Positions 3,677 to 12,183 of a stretch of DNA of 64,000 bases are shown here, piece after piece. The stretch is from the NCBI RefSeq assembly GCF_024223415.1, contig NZ_CP100500.1. One strand, given 5' to 3'. Origin of the DNA: Escherichia coli (lineage in GTDB: Bacteria > Pseudomonadota > Gammaproteobacteria > Enterobacterales > Enterobacteriaceae). Made by a program: the position numbers and the translations under genes. Within the stretch, counting starts at the first letter, position 1; every line of letters begins with the position of its first letter. Below the pieces are notes generated by a model. That model saw nothing but the letters and a program-made list of their open reading frames with translations, was not told the origin of the DNA and did not search any database.

Positions 3677-6166
3677 ATGGAGTTCGTCAGAGACTGGCAA
3701 AAACCGCGCCCCGCTATCGGGCGCGAAGGCTTACCCGTACCTGAAACCGCACTGGATACCATCCTGAAGTGTTACCGCGCGGACGAAGAGCGCGCCCTGA
3801 ACGCTGAAGAGCAGGGTCATCCGCTTGCGGGCACAACCATCGGTAACGCGATCGACAAGTGGGAAGGCGCACAGGAGCGCCAGGAAGAGGCCATCACGCT
3901 CACACAGGAAGCGAAGAGACGCCCACCCACCCTCATTGAGGAAACCCTCAAAGAGCTGGACACCCTGCCAAAGTGGTTGAGGCTGCCACTGATTAAGCAC
4001 CTGAACTTCTTAAGGCGCAAACAGGAGGACGAACAGCAGAAAGGCAAACGCGGCAAGGACACCCGCAAATACGAGCGCTTCGTACAGAACGGGATCCCCG
4101 CACGTCTTTGCCGTATTCGTGAGATTAACGATCGCTTTGCACCGTTGAGTTTTCAGGCCGCTGCCATGCGCGAGAGTCTGGAAGAGTTAATCACACTGCC
4201 GAACCTGAGCCGTGAACGCATCCAGAAAATAGCCGTACTGCTTGCCAGCGCCGTTAAAATGCATCTTGCCGACGCAATGGACAAGGCCCGCGAAATAACA
4301 GGGAACGACAAAGACGACAACCTGAACAACTGGCTGATTGCCTACCAGTATATTGGTCGCCGTGTCCTGAAGCTGGGGATCACCCCACCATACTGGAGCG
4401 CCCTTGAACTCCGTCCCGACCGCAGAAGCCCCCCGGACCTGACACTGGTACCGGGCGCTGTTTTGCGCCTGAACGACGCCGAATGGTGGAATAAAAAACT
4501 TCGCCAGATGCACGACGTCTGGCGTGAGGAACTTTTACGTGCAGCGGGCCTTGTATCCCGCCAGACCTCCATTTATGTGAGCCGGGAAGCACTGGCAGAC
4601 TTCCGCGAGAAACAGGCCCGTACCCGCGATTTTCTCAAAGCGCACGACGTGGAGAACGAAGACGGCGAACGCATCAGCCTGGAAGATATCTACTACACCA
4701 GTACATCCAACCCGCATAACCGCCGCAACGAGATGATGGCGTGCGTCAAGGGAATGGAGCTTATCGCACAGGAACGTGGCGACGTGGCCTTCTTCGTCAC
4801 GGTCACAGCCCCGTCTCGTTTTCACAGCGTCACCGACGCCGGTACCCTTAACCCGAAATACAAAGGCACAACAGTAAAAGACGCCAGCGACTATCTGGTT
4901 TATAACTTCTTCGCCTCCGCCCGCAAACTCATCAAAAAAGAGAAGCGGGGCTGGTACGGCATTCGCACCGTTGAGCCTCACCACGACGGCACGCCCCACT
5001 GGCACATGCTGGTATTCACAAGCCCCGAGAACGAAGCGCGCATCACGGAAATCATGTGCAATGCCGCCATCCGTGAAGACCGTGCAGAGCTGGGCGACGA
5101 CATTACCCCGCGCTTCAAGTGCGAGAAGATAGACCCCGAAAAAGGTACGCCAACCAGCTACATCGCCACCTACATCGGCAAAGGCATTGACGCCGCCGCA
5201 TTCGGCGACACGGATCCCAAAACAGGCAAACCGCCCGTTGACCACGAAAGCGGAAAACCTATGGCGGACACCGTGGAAAACGCCGTCGCCTGGGCACGCC
5301 TGCATCGCATTCGCCAGTTCCAGTTCTTTGGCCTTCCCTCACGTCAGGTGTGGCGCGAGTTCCGCCGCCTTGCCGGACAAATGGCACGCAACCCGAAGGG
5401 GCCGCAGGCACTGACCAACCCCAAAGCCGACGCTCTGCTGGCCGCCGCCGACGTGGGGTGTTTTGCCAGCTACATTATGCATCAGGGCGGCGTGCTCATT
5501 CCCCGCAGTGAATATCTGGCCCGCACGGCCTACGTCACCGCAGAAGAGCCGAACAACTACGGCGAGTTCCCCGACCGTATTTACGGTGTACGGATGCCGG
5601 AACTGGGCGATGAGTTCACGTTATGTACCCACCCGGAAGAGTGGAAACTCGTCAGAAAAGAACCGGAATCAGACGACCGCACGGGCGAGGGTTTTGACCT
5701 TCAGGGCGACCCCGTCGCCCCTTGGACTCGTGGCAATAACTGTCACCCTGACGAAAAAACAACCAACAACAGCACACAAACCGGACAGTCAGAGTGGGCA
5801 AAACTGCCCCCCTTACCCCCATCGTCGGACGGTTTTGTGAGCTGGTTTAAGTCGCTTAAGAGGCCGGACAGGAAAAAACTACAAAGATTGCTCAAAAAAC
5901 GCACCGAAGAGAGTCGCCAGAACGCCAGCGGCGGCACCGACACACCCACCGACACCATTAACCTGGGCGTTGTGCTGCCGGAACTGCCGGAAATCGTGCA
6001 AGTCCGCCGCGATCTGGAAGCGCTGGGCGCGGACTTCCCCGAAGCAATGGCCCATTCCGTCTTTATGGGTGCCCGCGTTCGTCTGGGTAACGGTCGCACC
6101 GTTCACCGCGACGAGCAGACCGGGCGCATCACCGTCACCAGTCTGCAACCGGAGGCGAAACCATGA
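3677..6166 (+). CDS. rolling-circle replication initiator, P2 gpA-like (829 aa)
   Basis: Large ORF with AGGAGG Shine-Dalgarno; contains the HWHMLVF histidine-hydrophobic motif typical of P2 A-type endonucleases. Confidence 0.85.
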   Translation: MEFVRDWQKPRPAIGREGLPVPETALDTILKCYRADEERALNAEEQGHPLAGTTIGNAIDKWEGAQERQEEAITLTQEAKRRPPTLIEETLKELDTLPKWLRLPLIKHLNFLRRKQEDEQQKGKRGKDTRKYERFVQNGIPARLCRIREINDRFAPLSFQAAAMRESLEELITLPNLSRERIQKIAVLLASAVKMHLADAMDKAREITGNDKDDNLNNWLIAYQYIGRRVLKLGITPPYWSALELRPDRRSPPDLTLVPGAVLRLNDAEWWNKKLRQMHDVWREELLRAAGLVSRQTSIYVSREALADFREKQARTRDFLKAHDVENEDGERISLEDIYYTSTSNPHNRRNEMMACVKGMELIAQERGDVAFFVTVTAPSRFHSVTDAGTLNPKYKGTTVKDASDYLVYNFFASARKLIKKEKRGWYGIRTVEPHHDGTPHWHMLVFTSPENEARITEIMCNAAIREDRAELGDDITPRFKCEKIDPEKGTPTSYIATYIGKGIDAAAFGDTDPKTGKPPVDHESGKPMADTVENAVAWARLHRIRQFQFFGLPSRQVWREFRRLAGQMARNPKGPQALTNPKADALLAAADVGCFASYIMHQGGVLIPRSEYLARTAYVTAEEPNNYGEFPDRIYGVRMPELGDEFTLCTHPEEWKLVRKEPESDDRTGEGFDLQGDPVAPWTRGNNCHPDEKTTNNSTQTGQSEWAKLPPLPPSSDGFVSWFKSLKRPDRKKLQRLLKKRTEESRQNASGGTDTPTDTINLGVVLPELPEIVQVRRDLEALGADFPEAMAHSVFMGARVRLGNGRTVHRDEQTGRITVTSLQPEAKP

Positions 6167-7084: not shown

Positions 7085-7467
7085 AAGCCCGCATCGGGAT
7101 CATCCCGGAAAAAGTCCTGCGTCAGCGCCTGATTGAAATTGCCAAGGGGGAGCGGAAACCACACCCCGACGAGCCAAGGGTATGGTTTTCATCCATCAAT
7201 GCGGCGGGTCAGGCGCTGAGCAATGAAAATATCTCCCTTCTTCGTCTTATGGATGAGGAGAAACCGCAGACCATGACCGAACTTGCGGAGTTATCCGGCA
7301 GAAAACTGAGTAACCTGTCTGTAACCCTGAAAATGCTGAGCAGCTACGGTTTTGTCAGTCTGGAAAAGAAAGGAAATACCGTACACCCGAAGGCACTTTT
7401 TACCGATTTTGAAATCATCGTTGATCCGTCCGTCGGTTCAGTACATCGCGCCACCGCCCGCCCCTGA
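7081..7467 (+). CDS. uncharacterised protein with predicted winged helix-turn-helix (128 aa), second gene of cargo operon
   Basis: ATGA overlap with upstream ORF; segment TMTELAELSGRKLSNLSVTLKMLSSYGFVSLEK resembles MarR/ArsR-type wHTH; followed by hairpin terminator. Confidence 0.6.
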   Translation: MKARIGIIPEKVLRQRLIEIAKGERKPHPDEPRVWFSSINAAGQALSNENISLLRLMDEEKPQTMTELAELSGRKLSNLSVTLKMLSSYGFVSLEKKGNTVHPKALFTDFEIIVDPSVGSVHRATARP

Positions 7468-7480
7468 AGTGTGCAATAAA

Positions 7481-7505
7481 CAGCCCCGGTCGGGGCTGTT
7501 TTTTA
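7481..7505. terminator. bidirectional intrinsic terminator between convergent cargo operons
   Basis: GC hairpin CAGCCCCGGTCGGGGCTG flanked by T-run on the + strand and A/T-run on the - strand. Confidence 0.6.
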
Positions 7506-7877
7506 TTCCAGAATCAGCTGTTCAGGTGTGCAGCCGTACAGTCTGGCAAGGCGCTCAATATTTGCCCTGCGCGGGCGTTCTGTTCTTTCGAATTCGGACA
7601 CGGTAGCCTGCCTGATACCCAGCGCATCCGCCACCTGCTTTTGCGTCATTCCGCGATAGATTCGCCACGCCGCCTGCATGGTGCAGCCACGTTCCGAGAG
7701 GATGTTGACCACCTCGTTGGGATACAGCGTATCAGGCGATGCACTCGGTTCGTTCTGGACGTCCTCGTAGAGTTCGTCAAGGTCGCTGTCTCCTGCCAGT
7801 TTTTCAAACAACGCCACTGGCAGAATGACGGATACCCTGTTACCCGCACCGTCAGTAATAAACTGAATCTGACTCAT
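7503..7877 (-). CDS. XRE-family HTH protein, HigA-like antitoxin candidate (124 aa)
   Basis: AGGAGG Shine-Dalgarno 6 nt upstream; C-terminal HTH MTQKQVADALGIRQATVSEFE; downstream of a RelE/ParE-like ORF. Confidence 0.65.
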   Translation of the reverse strand: MSQIQFITDGAGNRVSVILPVALFEKLAGDSDLDELYEDVQNEPSASPDTLYPNEVVNILSERGCTMQAAWRIYRGMTQKQVADALGIRQATVSEFERTERPRRANIERLARLYGCTPEQLILE

Positions 7878-7950
7878 TTGCCCCTCCTGCTAAACATCGG
7901 TTTATTTTTTAATTTGCTGCCGGTGATAAAAAACGGCGGGTCGCCCCGCC

Positions 7951-8223
7951 TTAGTATGTTGTCGAGGTTCTCCGCTGAATACGGAGGATCCTGATAACCA
8001 CTATCTGCCCTCCCTCAATCGTGAACCTGACACGGTAATGATTTACCCTGAGTCTGTACTCCCCGCCCGAGTCAGTGAGCTTTTTAATATCCAGATTCTG
8101 GAACTTCGGATAGCCATAAAGCGCGTTAACTTTCTCGCGTAAGGATTTCTGATCCCTCGCTGGCAAAACCCGTAAATCTTTGATTGCCCGAGGGGTCCAC
8201 ATGATTTCAGTCGTCATAAACAC
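7951..8223 (-). CDS. RelE/ParE-superfamily toxin-like protein (about 83-90 aa; start at 8223, 8217 or 8202)
   Basis: C-terminal EYRLRVNHYRVRFTIEGGQIVVIRILRIQRR matches the RelE/ParE pattern; toxin-first (HigB/HigA-like) order. Confidence 0.6.
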   Translation of the reverse strand: MFMTTEIMWTPRAIKDLRVLPARDQKSLREKVNALYGYPKFQNLDIKKLTDSGGEYRLRVNHYRVRFTIEGGQIVVIRILRIQRRTSTTY

Positions 8224-8268
8224 ACCGGAAGCAAATTATTAAAGAGCCGTGCCCGCTGGCACACCTTA

Positions 8269-8297
8269 AATATAGGTTTTAACCCCTATATTGTCAA
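8269..8297 (-). promoter_or_regulatory. sigma70 promoter (TTGACA-N17-TATATT) with overlapping inverted repeat, upstream of the toxin/HTH pair
   Basis: Near-consensus -35/-10 on the minus strand; ATATAGG/CCTATAT inverted repeats overlap the promoter, consistent with an autoregulatory operator. Confidence 0.5.
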
Positions 8298-8806
8298 ACA
8301 AAATCCCTATATCATGAAGTAAAAAAGCACCTCCCGCGACCTCCCTTTCCGGTGCACGAAAGTGCACAAATTTGCACAATTTTTTTGAACGACTTTTTGC
8401 CCTTCCGGCCCGTGTGGCGTCTGGATCCGTCGGGGATCCGTGCGTGCACGAAAAAAGGCCTTTTTCTGCGCGCAGGTGACGGGGGAACAGCCCGCGTTTC
8501 AGGGGGTAAATAGCATTCCCTGAACGATGTTGCAGTGACACAACAGAATGGCTGTATTTCTCACGCTGAGCGTGAAAAAGACGTAAGGGCTTTTGATTTG
8601 ATGGGGTGAAAGATAAGGCCGTCAAAATCGCACTGAGGCAGCGAGAATATGTCGTCAGAGTTGCGGGGTTGCGTAAGCATCCGCCCGGCGATGATGGCTA
8701 CAGGGCTGGAGATGTTGTGAAATTATCTGAAGGAATAACCAGCTTGCAGGAGAACCCGGGCAAAGTCAGAATAGCGGCAGGCATCAACTCAAAAGAGGAT
8801 AATGTC

Positions 8807-9376: not shown

Positions 9377-10432
9377 TCAGGATATGGGCCGGGTGTCTAA
9401 CAGTGCGTAAGGGTTAAAACGGATCACCTCTTCGCCCAGCCAGTCGTTGACGTGTTTCATTGCTTCCATGACGGGCATCAGTTCGTTAATGGCAAACACA
9501 CGGGCTGCCTTCTCCACATCCCCGAATGACCCCTTCTCACCCGGCATGGCCCCCATCAGCTGAGGTGGCACGCGGTGCACAGCCAGCACGTCATCACGCG
9601 ATGCGGCCTTGACGTTCATGAACTCATCCTTTGCGGTGATTTGCTGAAACGGCAAAATCTGTACGCCATCCTTACCACCTCCCGCCGCGTGGATGAGCAG
9701 ATTTTTAAACGCCCCGCCACCACGCGCGCTTTGCAGCGTTTCCCGCAGTTTTTCCATGCTTTCACGGTCAACCTGCGCCGCACCGATGTAGACAATACAG
9801 CCCGCGTGTGAGCCGTTATCGTAGTAGAGCTTGCGGAAGATATCGGCGGAATGTGACAGGCTGGCAGACAGCAGGCCGCCCAGGTAATCCGGCATCCCGT
9901 AAATCTCCTGGTTGATATCAGGATTCATCAGGTGGCATATCGTCCCCTCACGAAAGCGGTACTCTTCCTGTCCTTCCTGTATATACCACCATGATTTCAT
10001 ATCGCTGCCACGTCGCATGTATTTCGCCAGCGCCCGGCGCAGGGCCAGCGGTTCGCCAAGCATGTTGCGCCGCAGCTCAAGACAGGCATTACCGAACACA
10101 AACCAGTCCATCGCCACCCCGGCGAACTCCTGGCGGGACAGCAGAGGATGTGGAATATAGCAGCCCAGCAGCACATTACGTTTGAAGCTGAGCGCCGACT
10201 GGTGCCAGGACGTCTGGCGGGCAGCCCGTGCCAGTCCGTACCAGTCAACGGGCGTTTCAAACCACCGCCCGTTGTCGGCGCAGTACATGCTGTCCAGCAG
10301 GTCGGCCCCTGACAGCCGGTAAGGTCCTTCAAACGTGAAGGCACTCAGTGTCGGGTCGCTTCGCAGGGAATCCGCAAGGCTGCCCTGCGCTGCGCGGGCG
10401 TTCGTACGTCGTTGTTTATTTTTTCTGCTCAT
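9377..10432 (-). CDS. portal protein (P2 gpQ-like, 351 aa)
   Basis: Size and position immediately downstream of the terminase ATPase gene on the same strand, as in the P2 PQ operon. Confidence 0.75.
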   Translation of the reverse strand: MSRKNKQRRTNARAAQGSLADSLRSDPTLSAFTFEGPYRLSGADLLDSMYCADNGRWFETPVDWYGLARAARQTSWHQSALSFKRNVLLGCYIPHPLLSRQEFAGVAMDWFVFGNACLELRRNMLGEPLALRRALAKYMRRGSDMKSWWYIQEGQEEYRFREGTICHLMNPDINQEIYGMPDYLGGLLSASLSHSADIFRKLYYDNGSHAGCIVYIGAAQVDRESMEKLRETLQSARGGGAFKNLLIHAAGGGKDGVQILPFQQITAKDEFMNVKAASRDDVLAVHRVPPQLMGAMPGEKGSFGDVEKAARVFAINELMPVMEAMKHVNDWLGEEVIRFNPYALLDTRPIS

Positions 10433-12183
10433 CAGAACTCCGTAACACTGAAGGGGGCGGCATCATGTTCACCGCCGACAGGTTCGTTGATAACGGCCAG
10501 CATGGTGGCCCATGCAAGATCGCCATGGCTTACGCCTCTTGCGCGATCTGTTTCGTAGGTGATAAATCCGGCCTGCGTTTTTGTTTTGCGTACCGCGTTA
10601 AAGGCGCTCACCAGTTCGCGCTCGCTGCGGTCGTACTCCCACCGCCCGGCGCGCATGAGCTGCAGCATCTTCAGAACCAGCGTGCGCTTTGATGACAGGG
10701 TGAAGGTGTAGGGAATGGCTGCCGGAAAAAAGCGCTTCACAATCTGATACACCGCATCCCCGTGACCGCCGGTTACGTCAATACCGATATGCTCAACGTT
10801 ATAGCGAAAGGTGAACTCTTCAATGACCTTCGCCTGCGCCTCAAACTCCAGCCCCTGCACCCGCCGCGTCTCCACGGTGCGAAAACGCCCGCCCGGTACG
10901 GCTGGCGGCACCACCACGACAACCGCCCCGCTGTCACCGTTCCCGCTACTGCCGTTGGCGTCGTACCCAATCCACACAGGGCGGTTCCCCATCGGACGCG
11001 GTGCAAACGGCTTCCAGTCCGGCCACTCGTCGTATCCGTCAACACCGCAGCCAATCAGGATATTCAGGTTAAATGCCGATTCCCCTTCGCGAGCAAATTC
11101 ACACATGTAGAGATTGCGGAACTCGTCTTCAGTGTTATTGCGCCGGATTTTGTCAATGTTGGTTAACGTCCATCCCTGACTGACCACATCTTCCAGCGTC
11201 ACAATTTGCCGCCAGATATAGTCAGGACAGATAAGGCCGTTATGAAGCGCATTCCAGCTCACATCAAAATGCTGACGTTTATGAGTACGAAGCCCTTCAT
11301 TCCAGTGATCGCCGTTCCAGTATGCATACGCCTCATGTGTTTCACTTGATGGCGTGGAAAAATAGGTACACCGCAAACCATCCAGCGTTGCCATAGCAGC
11401 AGCCACCTTGCGCAGCTCTGCGAAACGCCCCGTCCAGAAAAACTCATCAAAATACAGATTCCCTGTGTACGCTTGCGCGGTGGCCGCAGAAGTGCCGAGA
11501 AAATGCAGCTCTGCACCGTTGGAGAGGATGACTTTATCGCCCCCTTTCAGTTCCACATCAACTTCAGATGCAGCCTTCTGAATAATGCTTTTAAACTGGA
11601 GCGCCTGACGACGAGACGCAGACAAAAAAATCTGGTTACGCTGGTAAGGTTGTGCCACATCGTCACGCAGCGCCATCAGCAGCGCTTCCTGCGCAAAATA
11701 CCAGGTCGCCCCAATCTGGCGGGATTTCAGGATCATCCTGTCAGTAATTCCGGCACGCTCACAGGCACCGATAGCATCAAGCCATTTGCGCTGGTGTCCG
11801 GCCAGCCTGTCGGTAATTTTTTCCCGCAGCGCCGCGATCTGTTCCGGCGTGAAATGATTTTTGCGTTTTTTCGCCCGGCCTTTCTTTCCTGTTGCCGTCT
11901 CATCCGGCAGACCGTCATGCAGCTTTTTAAGCTGACGGGTCAGCAAATCAATTTCCTTAAAGTCCCCGCCTGTTTTATTCTGTTTTTCCGTGAGCTGAAT
12001 GAGTCGCGCATCCATGGACTGCGTGACACGCTGAACCGGGGGCGTCTCATCCCACTGGTCGCGTTTTTTCCACGAATGGATCGTGTTCTGGTTGATACCC
12101 ATAAGGCGGCAAATTTCCGCAACAGGGTAACCCTGCCAGTACAGCTGGCGTGCCCGCTGGCGAACAAATGTATCCTGAATCAT
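10432..12183 (-). CDS. terminase large (ATPase) subunit (P2 gpP-like, 583 aa)
   Basis: Walker-A-like LKSRQIGATWYFAQEAL and size; divergent from the scaffold/capsid operon. Confidence 0.85.
   Translation of the reverse strand: MIQDTFVRQRARQLYWQGYPVAEICRLMGINQNTIHSWKKRDQWDETPPVQRVTQSMDARLIQLTEKQNKTGGDFKEIDLLTRQLKKLHDGLPDETATGKKGRAKKRKNHFTPEQIAALREKITDRLAGHQRKWLDAIGACERAGITDRMILKSRQIGATWYFAQEALLMALRDDVAQPYQRNQIFLSASRRQALQFKSIIQKAASEVDVELKGGDKVILSNGAELHFLGTSAATAQAYTGNLYFDEFFWTGRFAELRKVAAAMATLDGLRCTYFSTPSSETHEAYAYWNGDHWNEGLRTHKRQHFDVSWNALHNGLICPDYIWRQIVTLEDVVSQGWTLTNIDKIRRNNTEDEFRNLYMCEFAREGESAFNLNILIGCGVDGYDEWPDWKPFAPRPMGNRPVWIGYDANGSSGNGDSGAVVVVVPPAVPGGRFRTVETRRVQGLEFEAQAKVIEEFTFRYNVEHIGIDVTGGHGDAVYQIVKRFFPAAIPYTFTLSSKRTLVLKMLQLMRAGRWEYDRSERELVSAFNAVRKTKTQAGFITYETDRARGVSHGDLAWATMLAVINEPVGGEHDAAPFSVTEF

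Follow-up and report, generated by a model that had tools for sequence, protein, structure and literature searches.

Among described toxin-antitoxin (TA) systems, the closest in protein architecture to the locus reported here is HigB2-HigA2 of Vibrio cholerae (VcHigBA2), in which the toxin gene comes first, the toxin has a RelE-like active site, and the antitoxin is modular, with an N-terminal neutralising segment followed at the C-terminus by a helix-turn-helix (HTH) domain for dimerisation and DNA binding (PMC5416850). A toxin gene upstream of an HTH antitoxin gene, behind an autoregulated promoter overlapped by inverted-repeat operators, is also the arrangement of HigB-HigA from Rts1/Proteus vulgaris, the pair that defines higBA. 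In the relE-yiaG modules a RelE-type toxin likewise lies upstream of a partner with an N-terminal toxin-binding part and a C-terminal XRE HTH (Gerdes 2025, PMC11980606). Canonical relBE and parDE differ in having the antitoxin gene upstream, encoding RelB (ribbon-helix-helix or archaeal) in the first case and the ribbon-helix-helix protein ParD in the second. Here we describe two adjacent minus-strand genes in a 64,000-nt stretch (the window) of Escherichia coli contig NZ_CP100500.1, the first encoding a RelE-type toxin and the second an XRE-HTH protein. On the strength of sequence comparisons, the pair is probably a functional type II TA operon of toxin-first, higBA-like order that belongs to the cargo of a P88/P2-like prophage, in its gpA-gpQ hotspot, and it is best treated as a subfamily of RelE-type toxin/XRE-antitoxin modules that is new and uncharacterised.

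The window belongs to a P2-like (P88-like, Xuanwuvirus-type) prophage, and the pair lies between its gpA and portal genes (Table 1), the placement by which cargo of the P2-like gpA-gpQ hotspot is recognised. DNA similarity to P88-like phages picks up again at window position 8353; the pair therefore sits in the variable gpA-gpQ hotspot, and the prophage-hotspot context given to it in a first-pass annotation of the sequence was correct. The exact 1-kb locus is present in nine of 5,426 complete E. coli genomes, all of them chromosomal copies, and was absent from the phage collection searched by megablast. RefSeq lists the toxin (WP_029400438) as a 'type II toxin-antitoxin system RelE/ParE (or RelE) family toxin' and its partner (WP_029400439) as a 'helix-turn-helix domain-containing protein'. 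Rousset et al. 2022 (PMC9122126) also include both proteins in their table of hotspot arrangements, in a rare arrangement neither curated nor tested there. The module has thus been annotated and catalogued already, and a conventional mechanism is very likely.

The cargo of this cos-proximal hotspot is rich in anti-phage systems, several of which were shown to be defensive (Rousset et al. 2022, PMC9122126), and the pair may have been selected for abortive infection, a role compatible with the TA operon proposed here. A competing phage would shut off host transcription or degrade the antitoxin, and the freed RelE-type toxin would then stop translation. The location, the listing of both proteins in the hotspot table, a second TA-like pair that adjoins and the recurrence of the module at this hotspot in P2-like prophages of Klebsiella and Serratia all fit such a role, but the family also occupies non-phage chromosomal sites, the toxin has been lost in 10 of 55 loci, and the arrangement was too rare for curation in that survey (PMC9122126). 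Moreover, none of the families among the PADLOC-DB models matched the toxin, and the antitoxin gave generic HTH matches only (RmrA, CapH and control proteins). Given the hotspot location, but with only about one-third of the cloned hotspot systems having conferred defence (PMC9122126), we regard a defensive role as plausible rather than probable.

The first-pass annotation had called the upstream ORF RelE/ParE-like and left its subfamily to a profile search. In the Pfam scan the toxin matched one model above cut-off, PF05016 'ParE_toxin' (E=3.8e-9), and none of the HigB families PF05015, PF09907 and PF05973 at E ≤ 0.1. As PF05016 holds both gyrase-poisoning ParE and ribosome-dependent RelE mRNases, E. 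coli RelE included (Gerdes 2025, PMC11980606), the Pfam name does not decide the activity of the toxin. A family profile built from 22 members was searched against all PDB sequences, and it matched RelE chains only: Methanocaldococcus jannaschii RelE3 (3bpq_B, 1.5e-10), Pyrococcus horikoshii aRelE (1wmi_A, 5.6e-7), E. coli RelE (2.3e-6) and the RelE proteins of M. tuberculosis and T. thermophilus. No ParE, HigB or YoeB chain appeared in this search at E ≤ 1. The AlphaFold2 (AF2) model of the toxin (predicted local distance difference test, pLDDT, 85.5) has the beta-alpha-alpha-beta4 topology of the RelE/BECR fold. The top five structures returned for it by Foldseek were all RelE, led by RelE3, aRelE and T. 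thermophilus RelE at template-modelling (TM) scores of 0.70-0.78, and ParE, YafQ, YoeB and HigB came lower, HigB at ranks 38-50.

Alignment to E. coli RelE pairs toxin residues R55, R57, R62, R82 and Y88 with K52, R56, R61, R81 and Y87, and the 22 homologues are invariant at W7, D43, R55, R57, Y61, R62, R82, R83 and Y88. In RelE, Tyr87 is important for catalysis (PMC5416850). The best 40 representatives of a library-wide search retain a [KR]R..[RT]TY motif at the C-terminus. Roles for the basic catalytic residues of E. coli RelE (K52, K54/R56, R61 and R81) are reportedly assigned in Neubauer 2009 and Griffin 2013. Taken together, the RelE-only PDB matches, the RelE fold and the invariant RelE-site residues place the toxin with the RelE-type mRNases, and the supported prediction is a ribosome-dependent mRNase, distinct from the ParE gyrase poisons and outside the HigB sequence families. 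A ParE-type DNA-gyrase poison, which the name of the only above-cut-off Pfam model and the presence of two ParE structures (6x0a and 6xrw) among the Foldseek matches at E~1e-4 would suggest, is highly improbable, considering that the ParE proteins are absent from the profile matches at E ≤ 1 and from the five best structural ones, and that ParE toxins are without the catalytic Arg/Lys and C-terminal Tyr equivalents that are invariant here (Gerdes 2025, PMC11980606).

Three possible starts and no obvious Shine-Dalgarno sequence had been reported for this gene at first pass. The three candidates, GTG 8223, ATG 8217 and ATG 8202, do lie in the longest ORF (7951-8223, minus strand). All 22 non-identical homologues begin 5-6 residues ahead of the invariant Trp7 and none has a Met at the position of ATG 8202, so the start is ATG 8217, which RefSeq/PGAP also uses, or at most GTG 8223. 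The Shine-Dalgarno sequence consists of GGTG only, 5 nt upstream of ATG 8217, where relatives carry GAGG. The toxin clade is small and distinct: of a superfamily of more than 9,000 representatives, a profile search reached 2 at E ≤ 1e-30 and 423 at E ≤ 1e-10. A word-indexed protein search with the toxin alone returned three near-identical E. coli entries only, because the toxin diverges faster than the antitoxin; its relatives were reached through the antitoxin search together with the profile search. In Superficieibacter (L064:2721-3014) and Enterobacter sp. (L065:2724-3014) the toxin carries an extra 10-residue C-terminal tail beyond RRTSTTY and overlaps the antitoxin start by about 17 nt, leaving neither spacer nor hairpin.

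The downstream protein bears an XRE HTH at residues 72-121 (Pfam HTH_3, 5.4e-11), in keeping with its first description, and the solved domains nearest to this HTH are generic ones, namely HipB, ImmR, 434 Cro and Neisseria NGO0477/NHTF. Its AF2 model (pLDDT 79) consists of a beta-hairpin (residues 5-18), a helix (21-30), a low-confidence linker (31-50) and then a helical DNA-binding domain. Residues 5-28 gave a faint, below-cut-off match to the RelB-like family PF18506. No HigA model was among the NCBIfam matches of this protein, and PRK10072, the YiaG model, was reached at E=0.05 with 14 bits, where the cut-off is 110. Across the Enterobacterales, 43 cluster-level homologues of the antitoxin share 50-79% identity with it. 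A seven-codon ORF, ATGTTTAGCAGGAGGGGCAAATGA (MFSRRGK; window 7874-7897, minus strand), overlaps the antitoxin start with its stop (ATGA) and is without a Shine-Dalgarno sequence of its own; it may be a chance ORF or a remnant of the small spacer ORFs of relatives described below.

When set against the systems introduced above, the pair matches no single one of them throughout. It has no detectable sequence similarity to VcHigBA2, the HigB2 and HigA2 chains being found in no PDB sequence search at E ≤ 1-10, and HigB2 belongs to the Pfam family PF_RelE (Gerdes 2025, PMC11980606). The N-terminal segment of HigA2 is a helix and a strand, unlike the beta-hairpin and helix predicted here, and our genes are separated by a 73-nt spacer with a hairpin. 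E. coli K-12 RelE and the archaeal RelE proteins (3bpq and 1wmi) give the best profile and fold matches, share the catalytic-site equivalents and have a similar size (85-95 aa), but the single toxin sequence stays below the RelE family cut-off and the partner gene is downstream rather than upstream. The same downstream HTH partner, together with the RNase-site equivalents, sets the pair apart from parDE. The toxins of relE-yiaG modules are PF_RelE members with extended disordered N-termini, unlike the minimal 88-aa PF05016 member of this pair (Gerdes 2025, PMC11980606). As for Rts1/Proteus vulgaris HigB-HigA, the toxin here falls outside the HigB Pfam families and no consensus internal antitoxin promoter is seen in the window. 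The HigB/HigA-like label of the first-pass annotation accordingly holds for gene order (toxin first in 42 of 43 paired loci) and not for membership of the HigB or HigA sequence models in Pfam and NCBIfam.

The minus-strand toxin ORF, the HTH ORF that follows it and the 73-nt spacer (7878-7950) are all as originally annotated, and so is the near-consensus promoter ahead of them. TTGACA-17-TATATT (8297..8269, minus strand) matches 11 of 12 consensus positions, TTGACA-N17-TATAWT has a single copy in the 64-kb window and none across 100 shuffles, and a match of 11-12 out of 12 is kept in relatives. The ATATAGG/CCTATAT inverted repeats that had been seen to overlap it cover the spacer and the -10 hexamer TATATT (8269-8274), which lies inside one arm. 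Equivalent inverted repeats were found in about 20 of the 22 relatives, and a conserved layout emerges, in which one or two upstream direct ATATAGGG copies are followed by TTGACA and then by the inverted repeat across spacer and -10. The distal copy in the window lies just beyond the coordinates first annotated and brings the operator copies to three; one or two such upstream copies also occur in L002, L007, L012, L013, L015 and L021.

The half-site varies among relatives, and it does so in step with the recognition helix of the HTH protein. Half-site ATATAGGG goes with KQ[AS]TVSEFE, ATATAAG with KQ[AS]AVSQFE (Xenorhabdus, Photorhabdus, Rahnella and Ewingella), ATTAGAT with TQSAISQLE (Pantoea) and TATAAC with SQAAVAKME. 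Because half-site and recognition helix change together, autoregulation by the HTH protein, the layout proposed at first pass, is well supported; the protein is predicted to bind the repeats and to repress the promoter, and the comparative evidence for this is good.

Downstream of the promoter, the predicted 5' leader carries a motif of the form GYTCTTTAAnAAT in 19 of 22 aligned relatives, including those in which the operator sequence has changed. The motif is A/U-rich and could be a translational enhancer that substitutes for the weak toxin Shine-Dalgarno sequence. The small hairpin that precedes it is statistically weak (per-sequence shuffles, p ~0.03-0.7), and its pair count on the alignment was no better than in slid controls, with a MAFFT register that is unreliable. 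An Rfam scan of 7300-8700 at E ≤ 10 gave chance-level terminator matches only, and none for the leader or for the intercistronic hairpin.

The linkage of the two genes was followed in about 60 loci collected via the antitoxin, whose six-frame ORFs were searched with the family profiles; 55 distinct loci encode a full-length antitoxin. An intact toxin homologue lies upstream on the same strand in 40 of these and a truncated toxin in 2, 1 has the toxin downstream, 10 have no detectable toxin, and in the remaining 2 the contig ends ahead of the toxin position. The pair is syntenic in 43 of the 55, from about 12 enterobacterial genera, and its contexts include the gpA-portal hotspot of Klebsiella and Serratia P2-like prophages, a Morganella chromosome, between an autotransporter gene and cpxP, an Ewingella chromosome and a TelK (N15-like) element of Xenorhabdus bovienii. 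Of the generic features of a type II TA operon, a conserved, adjacent and co-oriented pair is observed, and a DNA-binding antitoxin whose operator overlies the promoter of the operon is predicted. Pairwise identities of toxin and antitoxin correlate at r=0.88.

The antitoxin-only loci include L010:3900-4330, L047:2890-3000, L024, L027, L048, L050, L051, L054, L061 and L066. Toxin remnants can be seen in L010 and L047. In Erwinia toletana the first 11 toxin codons ('MTQLSWTGKAA') are left, followed by a deletion into the antitoxin, and in Photorhabdus asymbiotica the last 11 toxin codons are left. Decay of this kind, in which the toxin goes and the antitoxin stays, would be expected if the toxin is harmful. 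The locus of swapped order (L008:2100-3120, the same as L022) is that of the Xenorhabdus bovienii TelK/N15-like element, where a ATATAGGG operator array and a 12/12 promoter lie ahead of the antitoxin, and the toxin follows 228 nt downstream of it, with a hairpin (AAAAAACCCGCTTCGTGCGGGTTTTT) and AT-rich DNA in front. Next to this swapped pair lies a gp49/HTH_37 pair, which is separate from it.

That the two genes form no functional pair, the HTH protein acting by itself as a regulator or repressor and the small ORF being an inert remnant, is barely credible: the ten loci without a detectable toxin, the non-overlapping genes with a terminator-like hairpin between them and the generic HTH-domain matches (HipB, phage repressors) would suit it, but the two co-occur in unrelated contexts, the toxin ORF is intact with all of its catalytic-site equivalents invariant, the HTH protein has its predicted operator on the promoter ahead of the toxin gene and not on one of its own, and the same operator and promoter move with the pair in the swapped-order locus. 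Nor is the HTH protein a phage repressor unrelated to the upstream ORF, a finding that the first-pass annotation said would overturn the pairing; the linkage in 43 of 55 loci argues otherwise, and the immunity-type HTH gene of the prophage itself adjoins the integrase, upstream of the window start.

The spacer between the genes holds a GC hairpin that the first-pass annotation had not noted, whose first base is the first after the toxin stop and whose predicted stability is -14 kcal/mol. RNAalifold was of little use on the post-toxin region, where MAFFT put 4 pairs in register and almost no covariation was seen, as expected from a stem whose sequence is itself conserved, and a per-locus census was used in its place. 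In 21 of 25 distinct loci a GC hairpin of at least 6 bp was found 0-7 nt past the toxin stop. Its stem hardly varies, GGCGGG(G)/(C)CCCGCC, with loops that are mostly GNRA (GAAA, GTAA, GCGA and GAGA), and in L005, L029 and L062 the stems are wholly different yet complementary. A T-rich tail follows the hairpin in the window and the Xenorhabdus group only; what is conserved is thus a stable hairpin in the RNA, which has turned terminator-like in some lineages. No internal, PhigA-like antitoxin promoter of at least 9/12 was found on the minus strand of 7878-8217, and none convincing in relatives. Sequestration of the antitoxin Shine-Dalgarno sequence by the 3' arm of the hairpin was considered and rejected, as the antitoxin Shine-Dalgarno sequences of relatives are not G-rich, and an integron attC or REP element was rejected on size (16-20 nt).

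Relatives with long spacers (about 170-186 nt; Table 1) all hold an ORF of 16-19 codons with an AAGGAG-type Shine-Dalgarno sequence, about 55-65 nt past the toxin stop, which is absent from the window. The encoded peptides are poorly conserved and have Arg-rich C-termini (e.g. MSKTVSSRSLNRRRIR). This spacer ORF may encode a leader peptide or a third component.

Within the proposed TA operon, the free toxin would be a ribosome-dependent mRNA endonuclease that arrests translation, as its homology suggests. The antitoxin would neutralise it through the N-terminal beta-hairpin/helix segment, and an antitoxin dimer is predicted to bind, via the C-terminal XRE HTH, the ATATAGG repeats over the spacer and -10 of a single strong sigma-70 promoter, so that the operon would be repressed by the antitoxin alone or by the toxin-antitoxin complex. 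Antitoxin excess is probably set after transcription initiation, with a degenerate toxin Shine-Dalgarno sequence (GGUG) against the AGGAGG of the antitoxin. The GC hairpin, which likely serves as a terminator-like attenuator here but is simply a stable hairpin in most relatives, may modulate the amount of transcript that extends into, or remains joined to, the antitoxin cistron. Weak translation of the toxin against strong translation of the antitoxin, together with partial read-through, possibly aided by ribosomes terminating on the hairpin, would reconcile the hairpin with antitoxin excess. The module would serve to stabilise the prophage or hotspot (addiction) and/or to defend by abortive infection once antitoxin synthesis stops.

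The kis-kid (parD) system of plasmid R1 offers a partial parallel. There, stem-loop-limited mRNA decay reportedly sets the antitoxin:toxin ratio (Ruiz-Echevarria 1995). A stem-loop at the boundary of the first cistron could likewise give the first cistron of our pair an mRNA abundance different from that of the second; the protected first cistron is reportedly the antitoxin in kis-kid, whereas it is the toxin here. We think it rather unlikely that the pair represents an undescribed post-transcriptional layout, made up of a translation-sensitive attenuator or processing-barrier hairpin, a leader motif replacing the Shine-Dalgarno sequence and two semi-independent expression units. Under such a layout the hairpin, 0-7 nt past the toxin stop, would be so near that a ribosome terminating there could melt it, translation of the toxin would be required for transcription, or an unbroken mRNA, to continue into the antitoxin cistron, and the GYTCTTTAAnAAT motif may stand in for the toxin Shine-Dalgarno sequence. 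Two such expression units, as opposed to a simple bicistron, would agree with the swapped Xenorhabdus order, the 16-19-codon Arg-rich ORFs of long-spacer relatives and the U-tract that the E. coli and Xenorhabdus versions have gained. If true, this layout might be tuned for toxin release upon phage-induced shut-off.

Several observations weigh against a functional type II TA operon. The single toxin sequence reaches 22.6 bits, below the 27.9 cut-off of NCBIfam TIGR02385 RelE_StbE. The N-terminal segment of the antitoxin has no credible relative among solved structures in sequence or fold searches, and its neutralising role is therefore argued from architecture. Shared descent confounds both the co-variation of operator and recognition helix and the correlation of toxin and antitoxin identities. 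For a system in which antitoxin excess is needed, it is awkward that a terminator-like hairpin separates the two genes and that the window shows no consensus internal promoter. The lack of a PADLOC match to the toxin also belongs here.

The pair is not alone at the hotspot. A second TA-like pair, which had escaped the first-pass annotation, is convergent with it and shares its terminator (Table 1); equivalent terminators lie 3' of the antitoxin in L004 and L015. The first protein of this second pair has no Pfam or NCBIfam match at E ≤ 0.1 and is named 'DUF6516 family protein' by RefSeq, and the second is a winged-HTH protein of HVO_A0114 type (Pfam 2.5e-16). Durairaj et al. 2023 validated TumE-TumA systems, in which DUF6516 is the toxin TumE, and the neighbouring pair is a candidate TumE/TumA-like one. 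Between gpA and this pair lies a further ORF whose start overlaps the gpA stop; RefSeq calls its product hypothetical, it has no Pfam, NCBIfam or PADLOC match, and it may be backbone or further hotspot cargo.

On the other side of the TA promoter, three direct GTGCA(C) repeats spaced by 10-11 nt occupy window positions 8352-8381, where P88-like homology begins (8353). The P2-like loci of Klebsiella and Serratia (L002 and L007) have the same repeats beside the TA promoter, and they may be packaging (cos-proximal) signals; a search with the P2 cos 19-mer, allowing up to 3 mismatches, gave no match. A GC-rich stretch between these repeats and the TA operator (8320-8351) contains ACCTCCC twice (8329-8345).

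Table 1. Features of the locus, with window coordinates unless a relative is named.
Feature	Position	Strand	Basis or remark
Replication endonuclease gene gpA	3677-6166	+	Flanks hotspot
ORF, 136 aa	6163-6573	+	
DUF6516 (candidate TumE-like) gene, 124 aa	6710-7084	+	
Winged-HTH gene, 128 aa	7081-7467	+	4-nt overlap with DUF6516 gene
Bidirectional intrinsic terminator, 10-bp stem, T-runs on both sides	7478..7501	.	Closes TA operon and convergent DUF6516/winged-HTH pair
Antitoxin gene, 124 aa: N-terminal beta-hairpin and helix (residues 5-30), flexible linker, C-terminal XRE HTH (54-121)	7503-7877	-	Pfam, AF2
Antitoxin Shine-Dalgarno sequence AGGAGG, strong, 5 nt ahead of ATG 7877	7883-7888	-	Read directly
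GC hairpin GGCGGG-GCGA-CCCGCC (GGCGGGGCGACCCGCC), then GTTTTTT; intrinsic-terminator-like	7928..7950	-	Terminator scan
Toxin gene, 88 aa, RelE-type member of RelE/ParE (BECR-fold) superfamily	7951-8217	-	Pfam, PDB profile search, AF2/Foldseek
Predicted 5' leader: small hairpin TGTGCCagcgGGCACG (8248-8263) at ~+1, then motif GCTCTTTAATAAT (8235-8247)	8235..8263	-	
Inverted-repeat operator AATATAGG / CCTATATT; read over 8269..8291, ATATAGGGG-N6-CCTATAT	8269-8276 / 8285-8292	-	Fills promoter spacer
-35 hexamer TTGACA	8292..8297	-	TTGACA or one-mismatch variant at same place in relatives
Distal operator copy ATATAGGG, direct repeat 21 nt upstream of proximal copy	8305..8312	-	Repeat search
Portal gene	9377-10432	-	Other hotspot flank
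Large terminase gene	10432-12183	-	
Long-spacer relatives	L004:3832-4000, L011:90-257, L012:2831-3000, L013:2824-3000, L015:2817-3000, L018:2815-3000		

These results add a RelE-type TA module to the list of cargo in the defence hotspot of P2-like prophages. Only the conserved non-coding elements and the adjoining TumE/TumA-like pair are unusual, and mildly so. If the role in phage defence is real, the pair would be a compact RelE-based abortive-infection system beside a TumE/TumA-like pair, and if the hairpin controls the toxin:antitoxin ratio, it would provide a simple model of how toxin-first operons avoid self-poisoning; otherwise the pair would be an ordinary addiction module, already recognised by automatic annotation. 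The comparison defines a small and coherent enterobacterial subfamily, characterised by a toxin C-terminus of RRTSTTY, a 124-aa antitoxin with an N-terminal beta-hairpin and a C-terminal HTH, a ATATAGGG operator and an intercistronic GNRA hairpin.

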